Shown here: piece by piece, positions 14,007 through 22,695 of the stretch
Layout: every line of letters begins with the position of its first letter
Numbering within the stretch: position 1 is the first letter of the stretch
Origin: Candidatus Thorarchaeota archaeon
GTDB lineage: Archaea > Asgardarchaeota > Heimdallarchaeia > Hodarchaeales > Hodarchaeaceae
DNA length: 32,000 nt
Reading direction: 5' to 3'
NCBI GenBank assembly: GCA_048882505.1
Contig: JBHLRO010000026.1
Span: 627-32,626 of the forward strand
Notes under the pieces: model-generated
What the model was told of the DNA's origin: nothing
Seen by the model: only the letters and a program-made list of their open reading frames with translations
Database searches by the model: none
Program-made: the position numbers and the translations under genes

Positions 14007-15323
14007 ATGATAATCGAGGGAAGAGAAAACCCGAATTCAGATCCAGGTAATATCTTATCCGCTTCCTTTCGGGCGCAAACATTTGTCCAAAATGGGCGTT
14101 ATTACGACCAAAAGGGGCAATACTCACAAGCGGTGAAGTATTATGGATTGGCCCAAACCAAATTCGCTAATCTATTGAAACAATTTCCAAAGGTACCTTT
14201 AACCCCCCAATGGGAGTTAGAAATTCGCCTGGCCCACCAACGTATCAACCAACTGAAATCTAAGGCGACACCCCAAAAACTCCGTTCAAAGGACGACCAA
14301 CAATATGCCGAGATGAAAGCTCGCGTTCTCTCCTGTCGAGTCAAACCCAACCCGAACCTGACACGACAGGATGTGATCGGCCTCCATCATATCTGGCGGG
14401 AGCTCGAAGACGTCGTTATTGATCCATTGATTTACCCCGAACTCCTCCACACCAATCCGGACTTCCCCCGGACAATTCTCCTCAACGGCCCCCCCGGCTG
14501 TGGGAAGAGCTTCCTGATGAATGTGTTGGCCGCGGTGGCCCCGATTACGCTCTTTCTGGTCACGCCAGGCCTGATCTACCAGAAATGGATGGGAGAAAGC
14601 CAAAAAATGGTGCAGGTGTTGTATGAAACAGCCTGGGAGTACGCCCCCTCTGTCATCTTCATCGATGAGTTTGACAAACTGTTTAATTCGTCAGTTACCC
14701 GTCTTAACGGCGGAACAGAGGCATCCCAGACAGGGATGCAGATCGAAAGCGAGCTCCAACAGTACTTGAGTGGGATGCGGACACCTCTCGTCAACCCTAC
14801 AGTTACAATAGCCGCCACCAACGAACCGTGGCAAATGGATGCCGCCATGCGACGACGCTTTGCTCGCATCCTCTATATCGGCCCTCCCGGCTCGTTTACG
14901 ATCGAACAGCTCATTGTCCGAAACTTTCGCCATACCCAACATGATCTAACCGAAAACCACGTCCAGTGGCTCGCGAATGAATTAGAGCGGCATTCACCCG
15001 CAGAGATTGCAAAAATTTGTTCGATCGCACATATGACGGCCCACAAACAAGCGCGAGACCAGGGATTTACTGAGGTGGTGAGTCTCAAGGATATGTTCGA
15101 TGCCATCCCCACTGTGGCGCCTGCTCTGGAGCTCTGGGCTGAACATAGTACAAGGTATAAATCGAAACTCACTAAATATCGGGAGTGGAACGACCAGTAT
15201 AGCATTCCTAAGATAGAACACCTGGGTTGGGAGTGGGAGCTGAAACCACGGGAGAAAACACGCAACCCAATTCAACTGAAAGTCTTTGACGAATCCCAAC
15301 CCGTAAAATGGAAGAAGGATTAA
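14007..15323 (+). CDS. MIT-domain AAA+ ATPase of the Vps4/CdvC/katanin (meiotic) clade
   Basis: MIT-like N-terminus (AQTFVQNGRYYDQKGQYSQAVKYYGLA...RINQLK), Walker A GPPGCGKS, pore loop KWMGES, Walker B VIFIDEFD, SRH AATNEPWQMDAAMRRRF; strong SD GGAGGGAGG. Confidence 0.85.
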   Translation: MIIEGRENPNSDPGNILSASFRAQTFVQNGRYYDQKGQYSQAVKYYGLAQTKFANLLKQFPKVPLTPQWELEIRLAHQRINQLKSKATPQKLRSKDDQQYAEMKARVLSCRVKPNPNLTRQDVIGLHHIWRELEDVVIDPLIYPELLHTNPDFPRTILLNGPPGCGKSFLMNVLAAVAPITLFLVTPGLIYQKWMGESQKMVQVLYETAWEYAPSVIFIDEFDKLFNSSVTRLNGGTEASQTGMQIESELQQYLSGMRTPLVNPTVTIAATNEPWQMDAAMRRRFARILYIGPPGSFTIEQLIVRNFRHTQHDLTENHVQWLANELERHSPAEIAKICSIAHMTAHKQARDQGFTEVVSLKDMFDAIPTVAPALELWAEHSTRYKSKLTKYREWNDQYSIPKIEHLGWEWELKPREKTRNPIQLKVFDESQPVKWKKD

Positions 15324-18300
15324 TGGAGCAGGAGGAGGCGCCTCAGGCCCAAGAAGAAGAGGAGCAGATTACCGAGGCTGTGGAGGAACAAGAAGAAAGC
15401 TGTGATCTAGACGGTCAAGACATCGAGGATCTCATTCAACAGATGGAAGCAGAACCCGAGGATCCCGACCCAGAAACAGAGGAAGACGTAGATCAAGAGG
15501 ATACTCTAGATGATGTAGGCGACCATTTTCAGCAGATCGTTGAGGATGATATTGCTAGTGACACGCTGTCCAAGGATGAGATTCTCGAGGATCTCCCCTT
15601 TGAATTTCCGCTCGCGTTTGATTATGAACCTGAGAATGAGACCATTGAATTCCTGGAAAGTGAAACATCCTCGATTCAAGAGGCCGAGCTGAATCGGGCC
15701 GAGGCCGTAGCGGAAGAGGAACATCTCGAAAAACTCCACCAATGGTTTGACCAACTTGTCCACCACGGCACTTCGGACTTAGAAGACCACGAAGATGTAT
15801 ATGAGCGAGATGAGGTGGGAGCGAGTACGTTGGAAGAAATCCAGGGTGTCATTGGGGAGGGGGAGATCCAGATCCAAGACTTAGCTGAACGGCTCCCTGA
15901 GGATATTTTCAGTTTCGAAATGGAGGAAGAACAGATAGATGCTCTCTTTCTGGAGGAACAGGACGTTAGTAGGTGGATTGAGGAAGAAACAACCCATGTA
16001 GCGGACCATCTTACCTTGGAAACACAAACTGAAGAACACCACCCTGAGCTTTCTGAGGAGGAGATAAAGTCAAAGCTGGAAGAGGTCGCTGAAGAGGTGA
16101 AAGATCAGTACGTCCAGGACCTCGATAGCTGGTGTGCGGATCTCCTGCACGAGACACCCGAAGAGAGTCGGGAGATTGAGGTTCAAGAACAGGAATGGAT
16201 AGAAACAACCCCTGATGAGGGAGAACTGGAAGTACTTACCCAAGAAGAGTTAGCTGTAAATGGGAGTGCGAACGAAGTAGAAATGGATAGTTTTACCCTC
16301 GTAGAAGAGGCAGAAGAGGATACACAATCAACAGTTACGACCCCTGAGGGGGGGACGAAGAATAATGAAATGGGAACGGTAGTTAAGGACATTGAGGAAG
16401 AAGAGTTAAGGGGGAATGTGACAGAGAAGGGAGTGGAGAATGCATCAATCACGGAAAATACACAATCCGAACAAGGACAGAATGTGAATATTGGGGAGGG
16501 GATACAAGCAGCTGAGAGTCATCCCATCCAGGAACTCGACAGCTGGTTGGATGAGGTTACCCATCTACTTTCTGACGGGAAAGCCTTGGACTTTCTAGAG
16601 CAGGATAGTTTCGTGAACATAGATGATCTGGTTCCACTTAGGGAAAATACAACTGATAAGGAGCTAGAAACTCTAGAATTAAAGAATCAACTACCTATGT
16701 CTATTCCTGAGGATATTCTTCCATTAGATGACCTACAAGTGGACTCAGAATTCCTCACTTCCACGCTTTTTCACACTGGATCTACAGGCCTGGATTCAGA
16801 GTATAACGAAGAGATCGCTCCATTCGCCCCATTATCCGAGATAGCTACAGAAATCCAGCAAAGGGAACAGTACCTTGATGTAATAATGGGGCCCCACTTC
16901 CTCGAAGAGGTACACACCCAGATCGAAGTACAAACACTTGAACAACTCGAGACCAAGGCCGACCAGGTTCTAAAAACCCAGGAAGAAGGCCTCCAACTCC
17001 AACGTCAGGTGCCGACTCTTCCTGAACCCCCTCCCTACGATTTTCAGGCCGAATTGGAGGCCTGGGAAGAAGAGGAAGCCCTTCAAGCCAAGTACACCGG
17101 CCCCCCTATCTATCGGTTCGCTAGCCATACTCAGGAAGGACGTTCAAAAAACTTAAAGGCCTCGTCCGACACTTCCCAAATACAGAAAACCCAGGAAAAA
17201 CAATCTAACAGAGAACCGAGGTCTAATTCTGGCAGGTCACTAGAGGAAGCTAAATACATTAAATTGACAGCATCTCGTGATTTGGCAACTCAATCCCTTT
17301 TTAATAAAGAGAAATCAATAGACAGCAAATATATGGTAGGATTGCCAAAAAGCGGAACTCAAGTGGAAAGAGGAAATGACCAGATGGGGACTTGTCAAAC
17401 TTTTGAAAGGGATTTTAAGTATATCAAAGAATATTTCGGATCTCTCAAATCTCCTTTAGAAGGCTTTAAGTATTGGATTAGGTTTGAACAAGATCTTAAA
17501 ATAGGTTCGATGAAGCAACCGTATTATTACAGTCTGTTAATCAAGCCCGATAAGAACATTCCCGATGTGGTTCATGAAAAACGGATCTATATCCAAAACC
17601 GGTCATCCTTTTTTAAAAACGGCTGGGATGCAAGAAATTTTTACCAGCATTCGACCCGAAATGAAGCAGTCTCTTCCTTCCAGAAGATTGTTATGGAAAG
17701 AATTGACAAATGGCTAAATATATCTCCGTGGACAGCTGTAAAAATCCGTCATTCGATATACGAACAATTTTACGAAAAAAAGCCCGCATTTTCGGAAATA
17801 AGGAAGAAAATTACAACAACAAAGAGTAAAAAGAAACCTTCTCTTTTTATCGCTAAGTTTAATTTAGAAAATTCCCAACCCTTATGGATAAAAGCATTTA
17901 ACGAATATATGAATAAGTTAAAAAATAAAGAGTCATTTCTGCAAGATTTAAAAATACGTTATCCTGACGTGTATCAATATTATACCTCAGAAGAGAACAC
18001 CCGCAATTTATCCCAAATTTTGGCCAATAAATCCCGATTCCTTGATTCTGAGGAAAAAAAACTGGCTAAACAAATCGTTTTAGATGTGAATACGAGAAAG
18101 GAGGATACAGCAAAGGCCAAGCGGTTTATTGAAGAAATAAACCATGCAATAGTAGAGGGTAACCTAAATGTCTCAGACCAAAAGATACTTGAAAATTTAA
18201 GTATGATAAGGAAACTAGAATCGTTTAAAGATATTGGATTTGTGTACAACGGAAATAACTGGGTTACAGTCTATAACTGGGAAGGGATGGATGATATCAA

Positions 18301-19810
18301 GTACTTCTTCAACGAAAGAATACAAGGAATTTGGGGATTGAAAATTTGGATTGACGTTTATATGGGAATCCCGATTTTTTCGAATAATAACAAACCTCTT
18401 TATTACACTGTGACGTTAAATGATCAAAGTGATATTCTTTTTCCGTTACGAGGAAAAACATTTCTATTAAGAAATGATCCAAGAGTTCTCAAAGAATATG
18501 GCGTTCGTAACTCATATTGGAGTGATAAGAACGGAACGGTCTTAAATTGGGAATATAGATTTTGTGAAGTTCTAGATTACGAAGTTCTAGGGCTAAACAA
18601 GGGAGATAAATCTGACCGAATGAACTTTACACGAATTAGAAATAGCATATTTAACCAGTTTAAACTAAAATACGGAGAAAATTACGGATACAAGACAAAA
18701 AATGCTCAAAGTCTCGCCCAGACAAAAATCCTTATTCTTAAATATGATAAAAATAACCTGCATTATTCTTGGATAAGGGCATTTTCTACTTCTAAATGGG
18801 ATATAACAACCTCTACATATAAGACTGTTGCTAATTGTCTTAGTAAGTTTGGATACGCAGATAGTCTAAAAGGGGAACCAATCGACTATATAATTACGAC
18901 AAGCGAGATTAAATACGATAATTTGATTGCTAAGATACGTAATAAAGAGATTGACGATCTTGGGGAAATGATTCATGCTCTAGAATATAATAAAAACTCA
19001 TCGACTAAATTTCACGATTTGTATTTTGGAACCAAAGATGTACAATTTCCTCTTATGGCCGATACCAGGGACTTTCAGAAATTTAAAGATGAATCAAATC
19101 CACAGGGCGAGTCGGCAATAATCAGTTCATTATTCCAACATAGGGAGTTGATAAGAGAGATAAACAAAAGATTTCCGTCAACGATCCCTTCATATGGCAT
19201 CTATGAATTTAAAGGCCAGTCTCGAGGTGAGAGTTCAACAACACCAGTCTATGAGGATATTTCAGCCAAAAAAAATAAAGCAGGGGATCCATTATCGTCA
19301 AATGTGAACATTCTAATTAAGAATTCAAATGAACATGTAAAAATCCGATTGTTAGAAGACTATTTAAAAGCCTTGCACGGAGTTGGAGACAAAAATATCT
19401 ATGTAAAAACAGTAATAACACATCCTGGGCATTTCAAGGATTTAAGCGAAATTCCAAGAGAAGTTAAGAAAGCAGTTGATAATTACCAGGAGGGAAGAAG
19501 ACTTGGATGGATTGATATAGGGATTGTACGTGGTAATAAGACCTATAATAACCTTGGATCTATATATGGAGCTGTGAAATGGGCCCGTACTGAAACAACT
19601 AATCATAAGGTGGCCGACACCAAATCGGGCATCGTACATGATTCAATAAGAAAACTTATGGAACATCGTATTGTGAAAAAGGAAAAAGAATTAGTTGAAA
19701 ATATGAACGACCTTTTTGAAAGACATAAATTTACTGGAAACTCCATTCGAGAAACCTCCTATGAAAAATTCAAGGATTTCATCATAGATTTCTTTGAAAC
19801 GTTTTTTTAA
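15323..19810 (+). CDS. ~1495-aa hypothetical protein: acidic disordered N-half, basic AT-rich C-half with a duplicated ~165-aa domain
   Basis: Uninterrupted ORF. The ATG at 15323 overlaps the ATPase stop (TAATG), suggesting translational coupling; the ORF track start at 15308 is an alternative. No family recognised. Confidence 0.8.
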   Translation: MEQEEAPQAQEEEEQITEAVEEQEESCDLDGQDIEDLIQQMEAEPEDPDPETEEDVDQEDTLDDVGDHFQQIVEDDIASDTLSKDEILEDLPFEFPLAFDYEPENETIEFLESETSSIQEAELNRAEAVAEEEHLEKLHQWFDQLVHHGTSDLEDHEDVYERDEVGASTLEEIQGVIGEGEIQIQDLAERLPEDIFSFEMEEEQIDALFLEEQDVSRWIEEETTHVADHLTLETQTEEHHPELSEEEIKSKLEEVAEEVKDQYVQDLDSWCADLLHETPEESREIEVQEQEWIETTPDEGELEVLTQEELAVNGSANEVEMDSFTLVEEAEEDTQSTVTTPEGGTKNNEMGTVVKDIEEEELRGNVTEKGVENASITENTQSEQGQNVNIGEGIQAAESHPIQELDSWLDEVTHLLSDGKALDFLEQDSFVNIDDLVPLRENTTDKELETLELKNQLPMSIPEDILPLDDLQVDSEFLTSTLFHTGSTGLDSEYNEEIAPFAPLSEIATEIQQREQYLDVIMGPHFLEEVHTQIEVQTLEQLETKADQVLKTQEEGLQLQRQVPTLPEPPPYDFQAELEAWEEEEALQAKYTGPPIYRFASHTQEGRSKNLKASSDTSQIQKTQEKQSNREPRSNSGRSLEEAKYIKLTASRDLATQSLFNKEKSIDSKYMVGLPKSGTQVERGNDQMGTCQTFERDFKYIKEYFGSLKSPLEGFKYWIRFEQDLKIGSMKQPYYYSLLIKPDKNIPDVVHEKRIYIQNRSSFFKNGWDARNFYQHSTRNEAVSSFQKIVMERIDKWLNISPWTAVKIRHSIYEQFYEKKPAFSEIRKKITTTKSKKKPSLFIAKFNLENSQPLWIKAFNEYMNKLKNKESFLQDLKIRYPDVYQYYTSEENTRNLSQILANKSRFLDSEEKKLAKQIVLDVNTRKEDTAKAKRFIEEINHAIVEGNLNVSDQKILENLSMIRKLESFKDIGFVYNGNNWVTVYNWEGMDDIKYFFNERIQGIWGLKIWIDVYMGIPIFSNNNKPLYYTVTLNDQSDILFPLRGKTFLLRNDPRVLKEYGVRNSYWSDKNGTVLNWEYRFCEVLDYEVLGLNKGDKSDRMNFTRIRNSIFNQFKLKYGENYGYKTKNAQSLAQTKILILKYDKNNLHYSWIRAFSTSKWDITTSTYKTVANCLSKFGYADSLKGEPIDYIITTSEIKYDNLIAKIRNKEIDDLGEMIHALEYNKNSSTKFHDLYFGTKDVQFPLMADTRDFQKFKDESNPQGESAIISSLFQHRELIREINKRFPSTIPSYGIYEFKGQSRGESSTTPVYEDISAKKNKAGDPLSSNVNILIKNSNEHVKIRLLEDYLKALHGVGDKNIYVKTVITHPGHFKDLSEIPREVKKAVDNYQEGRRLGWIDIGIVRGNKTYNNLGSIYGAVKWARTETTNHKVADTKSGIVHDSIRKLMEHRIVKKEKELVENMNDLFERHKFTGNSIRETSYEKFKDFIIDFFETFF

Positions 19811-20011
19811 CCTGATCGAGTAGATTTCTGTTGGTTCAATACACTTGATCTGAACAATAATCTTTATTTCAGGTTATAAATGTTTGAAACGCAATACATG
19901 CTATTTTATATAGGAACAACCCAGTGAATTTTAGATGAAGAACTTAATAATCCAACATTATGAATTAGATAAAAAAATAATCTGTCATGACTTAAACAGG
20001 TGTAGGATACT

Positions 20012-21089
20012 ATGAGTAAAACAGAAGGTAAAGATTTCACCGCAGACGATATTTCCTTCGATATGTTGTCCGAAGCTGACGTCGCAAGGGCCTATCAACA
20101 AATAATGGCTGAAATTCGGAAGGGATATATTGGACGCACCGAAATATTTGAGATGTTATGGATCGCCATGTTGACCGGTAAACACGTCTATTTAGAGGGT
20201 GTACCGGGTATTGGAAAACTTGGTTGTGGTTACAACTAAGTCTGAAAAAACATATATGGCGAAAATCTTCTCTCAATGTTTAGGAACACAATTTCAACGA
20301 ATTCAATTCACCCCCGACATGCTGCCCTCCGATATTGTTGGAACGAACATATTTAATCCCAAAACAGGAACGTTTCGTCTTAAAAAGGGTCCAATCTTTG
20401 CTAATGTCATATTGGCGGATGAAATTAATAGAGCTCCTCCTAAAACTCAATCAGCAATGTTGGAGGCCATGGCTGAAAGCCAAGTCTCTATAGAAGGCGA
20501 AACACATAAGCTGGAACAACCTTTTGTCGTTATGGCGACTGCAAATCCCGTAGAGCAAGAAGGAACGTATCCCCTGCCAGAAGCTCAGTTGGATAGGTTC
20601 ATGCTCAAAGTTATTATCCATCATTCATCGCCTGACGATGAACTTCGAATTATCAATTTCAAAAATGAGCCTGTCCCGGCCAAAATCAACCAAGTGGTGT
20701 CTCCTCAGACTATAGTTGCTATGATGGATGTTGTTAAACGTATTTATGTCTGTCCGGAAATTCTCGAAATGATTAGGGACATTACAGTTGCTACGCGCAC
20801 AGATCCAAGACTAATACTCGGTTGTTCTCCCCGTGGAAGCGAAAGTCTACTGCTAGCTGGTAAAGCAAGGGCAGCCATACATGGCCGGGATTATGTGATA
20901 CCAGACGATATTCTTCTAATGATACCTCATATAGTACATCATCGATTAATCATGAAGCCGGAAGCAGAACTCGAAGGTATCTCTCAGATAAGGGTGTCCG
21001 AGGATATACGCGATAGTCTCGTTGTGCCTGTCCATCTCGTAACCGAAGAAATGATCGTAGAAGAGTACATTGAAGAATATGTCGAATAG
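20012..21089 (+). CDS. moxR: MoxR-family AAA+ ATPase, predicted join(20012..20216,20248..21089), 348 aa
   Basis: Exon 1 ends HVYLEGVPGIGK; exon 2 continues TYMAKIF...RIQFTPDMLPSDIVG...LADEINRAPPKTQSAMLEAM...ATANPVEQEGTYPLPEAQLDRF. Removing 31 nt restores Walker A GVPGIGKT. Confidence 0.9.
20217..20247 (+). other. Candidate 31-nt bulge-helix-bulge intron in moxR mRNA
   Basis: 10-bp inner stem ACUUGGUUGU/ACAACUAAGU with a GGUU loop; 3-nt bulge AA^A (20215-17); 4-bp central helix UUGG/CUGA; second AA^A (20246-48). Contains an in-frame TAA at 20237-39. The outer helix is weak, so this is a relaxed motif. Confidence 0.75.
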
Positions 21090-21216
21090 AATGGGATTAA
21101 TGTCATCTGGTTTCAATCAATTTCATTCATCTTCCACCTGTATACCCGTTAACATAAAACAATTCGTAAAGAGAAACTACATAGAAGATCGAAGAACTTA
21201 CAAGACGTGGCTTTGA

Positions 21217-22695
21217 ATGCTCTCATCACGTGGTGCTTTTATTGCAATTGGTGGCATCCTACTCCTTTCTGTCGGCCTAAGCGCCAAGGGGGTCGGGACA
21301 CTTACCACGATGGTACCTATAGTGTTTGGAGGACAGGGGTTAGTTCAAGGCGGAGGGCAGCCAACAGGGAATGGAACTTCTTCTTATCCTCCAGGCTTGG
21401 AGTTTCTCGAAGTATTTGACATTCTAAACAGTTCTCCAATCGTGGATTATGGAATGTTTCTTGGAACTTTATTGATCTTGGCAAGCATTATTGGATTACC
21501 GTTCTTCCGAGCATCCGCCAATGCATCACTTATTCGAGTCACAAGGAGCATTGACCGCGAGAAAGCATTTGCAGGTGAATATGTCCACGTGACGGTCAAA
21601 GTTGAAAATACGGGTAGACGCCGCATGGACTTCTTAGAGATCTATGACGCAATTCCAGACATGTTCGAAATAGTGGTCGGAGAGAACTTTATTATAACCC
21701 AACTCTCTGGACATGAAACTAAAGAATTTTCTTACATTGTAAAAGTGAGTACTAGAGGTGTTTACCGTATAGGCCCAACCAAAGTCATTATACATGATAG
21801 ACTAGGCTTTTACTTTGAAGAGGACGTCCGACATTTCTACACGGAAGTTTTGTGCTATCCTTCCTACGAGGACATCCGGCGTATGGATGCCTTGAGCAAA
21901 CGACGGCAACAGGGCAAGCTTTTTGGGGCTCATAAAACCAAACAGAAAGGGATGGGAGACGATTTTCATGCCCTAGCACGGTATTATCCTGGAGCTCCAT
22001 TTAAATCCTTGGATTGGAAGGCTTTCAGCCGAACGGGAGAGCTCATGGTGAGGGAATTCGAAGCTGAGAAGAATATCAGAATTGTTGTATTCCTAGATCA
22101 TAGCGGGAGTATGGGCGCGGGGATTCCCTTTAACACAAAATTAGATTTCGCTATTCGGGCGACAATGCTGGTCATGAAGATGGCAGAGGAGAGGCAAGAC
22201 CTATTCGGCATGATCACCTATGCGGATAGACCTACCTCGTACCTCCCGCCTAAAGGGGGTAAAGCGATGTTTTTTCAACTATTAGAAATCCTTGCGCTGG
22301 TGGAACCCCAAGGTCGCTCCGATCCGTTGGCCGCAGTCGACTTTGTGATGCAACGTCTACCACGAGCATCTTTTTACGTGTTCCTTACTGATTTGGAATC
22401 GTCAGATTCCGAAATCTTTACCGAGGCGGCCAAAAGGGCTAGAGCTGCAAAAAACCGTATTACCGTAATCAGCCCCTTTGGACCTCTATTCGAGACAAAG
22501 TTGACAGATTTGACCCCGACAGAACGCGCAATGGCAGAGGCGATTTTCGAGGAATATCTCGGTTACCGAAAGCAGGTTGAAGATGGCTTACGAAATTTAG
22601 GGGTAGAGATCATAAACGTGGGGCCCGACGACATGTTGCCAAATGTAATTAAAACCTATATGAAAGCAAAACAACAACAAATAGGTTCGGTGTAA
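21217..22695 (+). CDS. DUF58 protein with vWA-like C-terminal domain (MoxR partner)
   Basis: N-terminal TMs; GDDFHALARYYPGAPFKSLDWKAFSRTGELMVREFEAEK; MIDAS-like FLDHSGSM; VFLTDLE. Confidence 0.9.
   Translation: MLSSRGAFIAIGGILLLSVGLSAKGVGTLTTMVPIVFGGQGLVQGGGQPTGNGTSSYPPGLEFLEVFDILNSSPIVDYGMFLGTLLILASIIGLPFFRASANASLIRVTRSIDREKAFAGEYVHVTVKVENTGRRRMDFLEIYDAIPDMFEIVVGENFIITQLSGHETKEFSYIVKVSTRGVYRIGPTKVIIHDRLGFYFEEDVRHFYTEVLCYPSYEDIRRMDALSKRRQQGKLFGAHKTKQKGMGDDFHALARYYPGAPFKSLDWKAFSRTGELMVREFEAEKNIRIVVFLDHSGSMGAGIPFNTKLDFAIRATMLVMKMAEERQDLFGMITYADRPTSYLPPKGGKAMFFQLLEILALVEPQGRSDPLAAVDFVMQRLPRASFYVFLTDLESSDSEIFTEAAKRARAAKNRITVISPFGPLFETKLTDLTPTERAMAEAIFEEYLGYRKQVEDGLRNLGVEIINVGPDDMLPNVIKTYMKAKQQQIGSV

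Follow-up and report, generated by a model that had tools for sequence, protein, structure and literature searches.

The question raised by the 32,000-nucleotide (nt) stretch of archaeal DNA analysed here (the window; C26:627-32626 of a 4.3-Mb metagenome-assembled genome with 41% G+C, from the order Hodarchaeales) is what becomes of a moxR gene whose reading frame is broken by 31 nt inside the codon for the lysine of its Walker A motif, or P-loop. Our answer is that the insert is very probably a tRNA-type bulge-helix-bulge (BHB) intron that is removed from the moxR mRNA, as an earlier note on this DNA had proposed; we infer its cleavage and ligation from sequence comparisons. This reading is supported by homologous inserts that interrupt other moxR alleles at this codon, by nucleotide changes that preserve pairing in the predicted structure, by restoration of the reading frame, by the constraint on the exons and by the presence of the processing enzymes in the host genome.

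The first of the two open reading frames (ORFs), 20012-20239, ends in ...GVPGIGK-LGCGYN-TAA, and the MoxR frame picks up again at ACA 20250 (TYMAK...) to run to a stop codon at 21087-21089. Pfam places bpMoxR on the first ORF, and both AAA_3 (E 3.7e-58, from profile position 13) and AAA_lid_2 on the second, such that the two are recognisable as halves of one gene, cut within the P-loop. Aligned with 22 orthologues (21 from its genus and two from its order, with its own copy excluded), the window has 31 nt as its sole extra columns, and these lie between GGA-A and AA-ACA; the break in the Walker A lysine codon that the earlier note described is therefore borne out by the sequence, by Pfam and by this alignment. 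The Walker A motif is whole only once the insert has been removed. Unspliced RNA codes for a stump of 75 amino acids (aa), and removal of 20217-20247, by the cuts that the note had suggested, remakes G-K-T and gives a 1,047-nt coding sequence that translates without a stop into a 348-aa protein with GVPGIGKTYMAK and with GVPGIGKT intact. The gene has the features of a MoxR-type AAA+ ATPase, namely an AAA_3 core with Walker A, an AAA lid and a DUF58/vWA operon partner; its orthologues, from Hodarchaeales, bear the names MoxR-like or AAA family ATPase, the closest relatives being assigned to Candidatus Hodarchaeales or Hodarchaeum (Heimdallarchaeia, Asgard). The partner is an intact ORF of 492 aa, which argues that the MoxR module is in use.

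The insert is real DNA, and it recurs in diverged form. We sought split genes among close MoxR homologues, both as proteins without an N-terminus and as N-terminal stumps. Logan assemblies of two runs, each belonging to a different study, contain sequence that codes for exactly the 75-aa stump; one of these contigs (SRR20218960, 1,155 nt) differs from the window by four single-nucleotide polymorphisms (SNPs) and carries an identical insert. A second version, also of 31 nt and in the same codon, is found in contigs L038 (JGI 3300027872) and L047 (ENA ERZ27250394), and a third, of 30 nt, in L035 (GCA_976551405.1), where it is in frame yet contains TGA. In all, six contigs carry the insert; they come from at least five data sets and were produced by different assemblers, and the positions that differ among the three versions amount to 16% and about 30%. 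The earlier note had allowed for an assembly artefact; the identical inserts in two Logan assemblies and the homologues in other data sets show otherwise.

The predicted fold of the insert is exactly that described in the earlier note: a 10-bp stem closed by a GGUU loop, AAA bulges, a UUGG/CUGA central helix and a TAA stop at 20237-39. The stem contains one G.U pair, at 20222-20237, and the central helix of the window two wobble pairs. The 5' bulge and the 3' site lie exactly 4 bp apart in the window, in L038/L047 and in L035, and the inner helix is strong at 9-10 bp. The runs of A would allow five registers (intron starts at 20215-20219) that yield one and the same product, and the BHB rule selects 20217; the predicted spliced junction is ...GGUAUUGGAA joined to AAACAUAU.... 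When the insert was shuffled, 88 of 200,000 sequences reached a central helix plus an inner stem of at least 6 bp in the frame-restoring register, and because of this figure, and because the fold is kept in two independent diverged copies, we regard a chance origin of the fold as excluded.

In an alignment of the three versions (A2), all 55 cells of the 14 BHB pairs hold standard pairs, with five pairs varying to give seven extra pair types (17-49, CG/UA/UG; 18-48, GU/GC; 24-45, UG/CG/UA; 26-43, UA/UG; 27-42, AU/GU), while registers slid by one to three columns pair in only 27-47% of cells. The central helix of L035 consists of four Watson-Crick pairs (UUGG/CCAA). A cut after the second base of each bulge restores ...GIGKTYMA... 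in the window, in L038/L047 and in L035 alike, despite insert lengths of 31, 31 and 30 nt, a bulge of AAA or AAU and a lysine codon of AAA or AAG; alleles of the L038 type have U as the third base of the bulge, in keeping with an intronic position. The comparison of orthologues for intron presence and stem changes that the earlier note had suggested thus yielded pair-preserving changes in three alleles and 22 orthologues from which the intron is missing.

The exons are under strong constraint. Intron-bearing alleles have no further lesion in their exons, and the ratio of non-synonymous to synonymous substitution rates (dN/dS) is 0.035 between the window and L047, 0.036 between the window and its nearest relative, the intronless allele L002 of genome G016, and 0.025-0.039 for other pairs, the first of these values matching that of intronless pairs. 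In exon 2, the window and the SRR20218960 strain, both with the window's intron version, are separated by 14 synonymous and no non-synonymous differences, in a comparison whose piece 20353-20648 is joined to L034 solely via overlap and shared SNPs. Divergence between intron versions is below that at synonymous sites (pS 0.64 and 0.82). Such constraint, combined with the presence of the insert in three diverged backgrounds, means that the insert must be neutralised, and BHB splicing is the only mechanism fitting all three of its versions.

The genome contains the machinery that would be required. Two EndA paralogues, encoded on contig C18 by ORFs in L031:1234-1782 and L032:1222-1863 and each with both Pfam domains, differ when aligned at the catalytic histidine: one reads ...GPGIDHS..., while in the other, reading ...GKPGES..., the context of the catalytic histidine is missing. 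This contrast matches that between a catalytic subunit and a structural one, and a heteromeric endonuclease is predicted; such enzymes are reported to cleave relaxed motifs and also cbf5 pre-mRNA (PMC2738675, PMC5829648). RtcB is also encoded (L049, 541 bits). ARAGORN calls introns in 23 of the 39 tRNAs of the genome, several of them with clear BHBs, and one in tRNA-Ala(GGC) (contig C2, c[137847,137952]) is likewise 31 nt long, with a well-formed BHB and the same UUGG central-helix strand as in moxR. The moxR intron has no sequence similarity to the tRNA introns of its own genome. ARAGORN and Rfam (at gathering thresholds) gave no match in the window and detected no tRNA there, although standard tools probably overlook tRNAs with several introns in this DNA. 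According to a 2026 preprint in which mRNAs are not covered, Asgard tRNA genes carry a heavy load of introns and most Asgard genomes have two EndA paralogues (10.64898/2026.10.13.758758).

We propose a model in which exon UUGG (20211-14) in the moxR transcript would pair with intron CUGA (20242-45), leaving a 3-nt bulge and the 10-bp intron hairpin on one side and an A-rich, single-stranded 3' site on the other, i.e., a relaxed BHB. The heteromeric endonuclease, composed of catalytic and degenerate EndA, would cut after 20216 and 20247, and RtcB would then ligate the exons to remake the Walker A lysine codon and produce the 348-aa MoxR ATPase. The features concerned are listed in Table 1.

Table 1. 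Features of the interrupted moxR locus, in window coordinates.
Feature	Position	Strand	Basis and remarks
moxR exon 1	20012..20216	+	codons 1-68 and first base of the Walker A lysine codon; bpMoxR Pfam; gapless against 22 orthologues
moxR exon 2	20248..21089	+	last two bases of the lysine codon, then TYMAK... to the stop; AAA_3 and AAA_lid_2
BHB-type mini-intron, 31 nt (probable)	20217..20247	+	only extra columns against 22 orthologues; homologous copies in L038/L047 (31 nt) and L035 (30 nt)
Central helix, 5' strand UUGG, exon 1	20211..20214	+	pairs with 20242-20245; pair types vary (UG/CG/UA, GU/GC), always paired
5' bulge AA^A, predicted cut after 20216	20215..20217	+	read from sequence
Intron hairpin: 10-bp stem 20218-20227/20232-20241 with GGUU loop 20228-20231	20218..20241	+	minimum free energy structure; paired in all alleles, with pairs 24-45, 26-43 and 27-42 of A2 varying
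Central helix, 3' strand CUGA, intron	20242..20245	+	CCAA in L035
3' bulge AA^A, predicted cut after 20247	20246..20248	+	sequence and folds; no adjoining outer helix, relaxed motif
In-frame TAA ending translation of unspliced RNA	20237..20239	+	read from sequence and ORF list
Predicted exon-1 hairpin CCGGU...ACCGG	20175..20207	+	3 nt upstream of the central helix; RNAalifold and single-sequence folds; prediction only
Predicted long-range helix, 5' strand UCGCCAUGU	20163..20171	+	pairs with 20254-20262; RNAalifold and single-sequence folds; prediction only
Predicted long-range helix, 3' strand AUAUGGCGA, exon 2	20254..20262	+	RNAalifold and single-sequence folds
DUF58/vWA partner gene, MoxR operon	21217..22695	+	DUF58 and VWA_2 Pfam; intact 492-aa ORF

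The distribution of the intron is patchy, and its history appears to involve exchange between lineages. Among the best 150 orthologues from 400 Asgard species genomes, the window's is the only open frame shorter than 300 aa, and there is no other break at the site. A tree of exon 2 groups the window with the intronless L002 (support 100/99), then with L047 (100/100), and places L035 elsewhere in the same 15-member clade; the presence of the intron requires three changes on this tree, whether gains or losses, at least two of them by well-supported branches. Sequence on either side of the intron tells different stories. In the 66 nt on its 5' side, identity among intron-bearing alleles is 0.88-0.91, against 0.80 between the window and L002, whereas on its 3' side the window is closest to L002 (0.93 versus 0.78). 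The locus is a mosaic over a longer range as well (window 18524-20216 against 20248-22585), being closest upstream to the L038/L039 lineage and, from the intron onwards, to G016; the region upstream of moxR in G016 is not homologous to that of the window, and the identity switches at or near the intron. One neighbouring gene illustrates the upstream affinity, as window 15308-19810, immediately 5' of moxR, encodes a very acidic protein of 1,500 aa, lacking a Pfam match, that is common to the L038/L039 lineage and not found in G016.

Intron-bearing alleles have in common synonymous states that are rare in, or missing from, the 22 intronless ones (ACC, 0/22; CCG, 1/22; GAG, 0/22; GCC, 5/22), and RNAalifold together with three single-sequence folds places these states in the predicted exon-1 hairpin and long-range helix. 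At pair 20179-20203 of the hairpin, L035 has A-U where the other two alleles have U-A; at pair 20164-20261 of the long-range helix, which is 9 bp in length, the window has C-G, L038 has U-A and L035 has lost the pairing. Together, the two elements are predicted to close a three-way junction around the BHB hairpin. The linked 5' flank is compatible with recombinational co-transfer with the intron, or with a selected RNA scaffold that replaces the missing outer helix, and both would allow a functional intron.

Several observations weigh against splicing of the moxR transcript. The pair-conservation test on A2 has low power, there being just three distinct intron sequences, and single transitions often preserve pairing by chance; a shuffle control on the same alignment was powerless, with 177-231 of 500 shuffles reaching the observed values, and we give it no weight. 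The fold does not conform to the strict hBHBh' form. The outer exon-exon helix by the 3' bulge, which the earlier note called weak, comprises 0-2 bp in the window, is not conserved and is essentially absent in our folds, so that the far side of the 3' 'bulge' is open. All other defining features of BHB introns that we tested were present, and a strict outer helix is not a requirement for membership in hosts with a heteromeric endonuclease. In the window the BHB fold lies 0.5 kcal/mol above the minimum free energy, with two of its four central pairs being wobbles; in every allele the distance is at most 0.5-0.8 kcal/mol. A rival register with a 5-bp helix and a 9-bp stem, to which the earlier note had drawn attention, does compete within this range and is slightly favoured in the other two copies; it would not restore the frame.

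The remaining adverse points concern the gene and its history. None of the 22 other orthologues that represent species of the order has the intron, not even that of G016, with which the window shares 97% protein identity. There are also damaged moxR genes in the group: L036 and L037 have two distinct 28-nt deletions that remove the P-loop (L036:1430-1445, L037:735-745); L040 has AAA>TAA at the Walker A lysine codon as well as a second deletion (1188-1196, 1415-1440); and in L039 (1690-1842) the sequence after ...CCTG gives way to 147 nt of unrelated DNA, including the end of a reverse-strand ORF, for which comparison with the window's own genome gave no relevant match, only one of 31 nt at E 9e-4. 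These inactivating lesions show that moxR can be lost among Hodarchaeales. Finally, recombination, as seen in the mosaic identity, could recently have put the insert into functional backgrounds, which would weaken the argument from selection.

One rival is that the insertion is not spliced but disabling, and that moxR is a young pseudogene in these lineages. The genuine lesions at the same P-loop site in four other alleles are in keeping with this, as is the absence of the insert from the nearest relative and from all species representatives. The decay that the earlier note had thought might appear in orthologues was indeed found, but only in some alleles of the intronless type and never in the exons of intron-bearing ones. 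Three diverged inserts persist in otherwise uninterrupted ORFs with a dN/dS of about 0.035, all 14 strain differences in exon 2 are synonymous, every substitution in paired columns keeps the pairing, the insert evolves more slowly than synonymous sites and the DUF58 partner is intact; an insert that killed the gene should not reach three backgrounds of a gene so constrained. We consider a pseudogene unlikely. Alternatively, the insert could be an element acting at the level of DNA, i.e., a small palindromic insertion or gene-conversion cassette, possibly excised reversibly (phase variation), with no RNA splicing involved. It is a near-perfect palindrome between A-run repeats, changes two to three times on the exon-2 tree and travels with roughly 65 nt of 5' flank in a mosaic locus. 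Yet the insert sequence has no second copy in its own genome, and the 82 other genomes scanned within the class lack the hairpin motif; the tolerance of G.U pairs and of U-A/U.G changes is more in line with pairing in RNA than in DNA; no target-site duplication is consistent across the three versions; and a deletion running from one GAAAA repeat (20214-18) to the other (20244-48) would take out 30 nt rather than 31 and cause a frameshift. Lateral spread of DNA is compatible with splicing of RNA but is no substitute for it, and as a complete account a DNA-level element is very unlikely.

Programmed translational bypassing, in which the ribosome would land 30-31 nt downstream on uncut RNA, deserves mention for the arrangement of the window and L035, each of which has AAA ahead of the hairpin and a second, matching AAA on the 3' side at a distance of exactly 31 or 30 nt, with a stable hairpin and a stop codon after the take-off site. 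This is the layout of phage T4 gene 60, where a take-off codon is followed by a stable hairpin with a stop and by a matching landing codon. The L038/L047 version breaks the likeness: its 5' codons are GGA AUA, with no AAA for take-off, and GAA precedes AAG-ACG, mismatching GGA. Bypassing also leaves the conserved 4-bp helix (UUGG/CURA) unexplained, while BHB cuts account for all three alleles, and we judge it highly improbable. Three further explanations were rejected: read-through of the stop codon would insert ten residues in the P-loop and would meet TGA in the in-frame 30-nt copy, frameshifting fails on that same copy, which is in frame and still holds a stop, and a protein made in two pieces would have its P-loop severed between K and T. 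An assembly or sequencing artefact (a hairpin chimera or k-mer artefact) might be suspected in a metagenome-assembled genome, 31 being a common k-mer size, but is effectively refuted by the recurrence of the insert across contigs, data sets and assemblers in three versions, one of them 30 nt long.

Even if the moxR insert is spliced, a regulatory role for it is unsupported. The earlier note had combined two proposals, and they fared differently: a spliced mRNA intron is favoured by the comparative evidence from three alleles, but a regulatory switch sits poorly with an insert that is missing from the nearest relative and the 22 representatives. Such a distribution is more in keeping with an element that the host tolerates, and that may be mobile, than with a conserved means of control, and we therefore view the intron as a tolerated, apparently laterally spreading element and not as a regulator.

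It is possible, though doubtful, that the mini-intron is actively spreading between moxR alleles of different Hodarchaeales species and takes about 65 nt of upstream exon with it, whether in a co-conversion tract or because this exon serves as a co-adapted RNA scaffold, and that the empty site in the P-loop-coding region is a target for DNA breakage. The lesions of L036, L037, L039 and L040, all intronless-type alleles, lie within about 20 nt of the intron site, and of the seven N-terminal stumps found, six are interrupted at codons 61-70, although our search could have shown breaks from about 41 to 131; the P-loop-coding region may be a mutational hot spot. The linked flank and the empty-site lesions resemble homing without a known enzyme. 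An insert of 30-31 nt cannot encode a protein, and no candidate nuclease was identified. If this were true, it would mean homing-like mobility of a BHB intron without an enzyme of its own, and provide a mechanism of intron gain for protein genes in the closest archaeal relatives of eukaryotes.

The nearest precedent is the cbf5 intron of Crenarchaeota (Watanabe 2002; Yoshinari 2006; Yokobori 2009, PMC2738675). Introns in cbf5 are 16-44 bp long, mostly with unconventional BHBs that are cut between the second and third bulge residues; they disrupt a catalytic codon and have been lost in particular lineages (PMC2738675). The moxR insert is alike in being a short insert in a coding sequence that strikes a catalytic codon, in having a relaxed BHB with the same cut rule, in belonging to a host with a predicted heteromeric endonuclease, in being too short for a homing enzyme and in its lineage-specific presence and absence. 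It differs in occurring in an Asgard archaeon and in a MoxR AAA+ ATPase. Splicing of cbf5 is known from cDNA and from cleavage in vitro, whereas that of moxR is deduced from comparison; and the cbf5 intron is ancestral to two orders, with few losses, whereas the moxR intron is rare (three alleles; 0/22 representatives besides the window), polyphyletic and tied to a distinctive 5' flank. The classical cbf5 intron is absent from the genome studied here, whose TruB_N gene (C18:79162-79509, L051/L052) lies in a single open frame of 376 aa.

A 2020 study named cbf5 as the sole other BHB intron reported in archaeal mRNA and added the 5' untranslated region of HVO_1309 in Haloferax volcanii (PMC7714728). 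The latter is likewise an mRNA and a confirmed substrate of an archaeal splicing endonuclease, but its intron lies in an untranslated leader, leaves the reading frame unbroken and belongs to a euryarchaeal host (PMC7714728). Nothing newer on BHB introns in coding sequences was found in the literature searched, within which the statement of the earlier note that none is known in a MoxR gene also holds. Archaeal tRNAs, those of the same genome among them, have non-canonical BHB introns that share with moxR the predicted enzymes, the cut rule and a similar size; the moxR substrate would be an mRNA, with no tRNA body to supply the outer helix. A more distant analogue is found in HAC1 and XBP1, whose coding mRNAs lose a short intron, with a change of frame, by a route independent of the spliceosome, IRE1 performing the cleavage and tRNA ligase, or RtcB in animals, the joining. 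There, however, the nuclease is IRE1 and not EndA, paired stem-loops are recognised and splicing is a regulated stress switch, while the moxR intron shows no sign of regulation.

In the literature searched, cbf5 of Crenarchaeota is the only archaeal coding sequence known to require tRNA-splicing enzymes. The moxR case would extend mRNA splicing by protein enzymes to Hodarchaeales, the Asgard group placed closest to eukaryotes, and its polymorphism (relatives with and without the intron, three versions and a linked flank) offers a natural experiment on the gain, loss and tolerance of introns. There is also a practical consequence, in that gene callers give two ORFs (75 aa and 287-292 aa) and an ATPase that probably works is annotated as broken.

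Searches by pattern were less informative than those by homology. A genome-wide scan for a 4-bp helix, 3-nt bulges, an inner stem and removal that joins open frames gave 1,418 matches, mostly at gene boundaries; without homology data such a scan is unspecific, and a longest-frame filter discarded moxR itself. The moxR insert is one of two matches in which the inner stem has 10 bp and the length does not exceed 40 nt. A pattern scan of GTDB produced two unrelated matches, one of which, in an intact 1,051-aa type I restriction gene of Bathyarchaeia, is ascribed to chance. Among JGI metagenome contigs, the hairpin pattern was found only in the L038 contig again and in unrelated high-G+C hairpins. 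Finally, four high-G+C bacterial contigs (L041:59-89, L042:1485-1515, L044:1709-1739 and L045:5333-5363) contain perfect palindromes of low G+C, GACTTAGTTGC-N5-GCAACTAAGTC, with stops on both strands; one of these contigs comes from a Gaiellaceae metagenome-assembled genome, and the palindromes are probably unrelated to the moxR intron.

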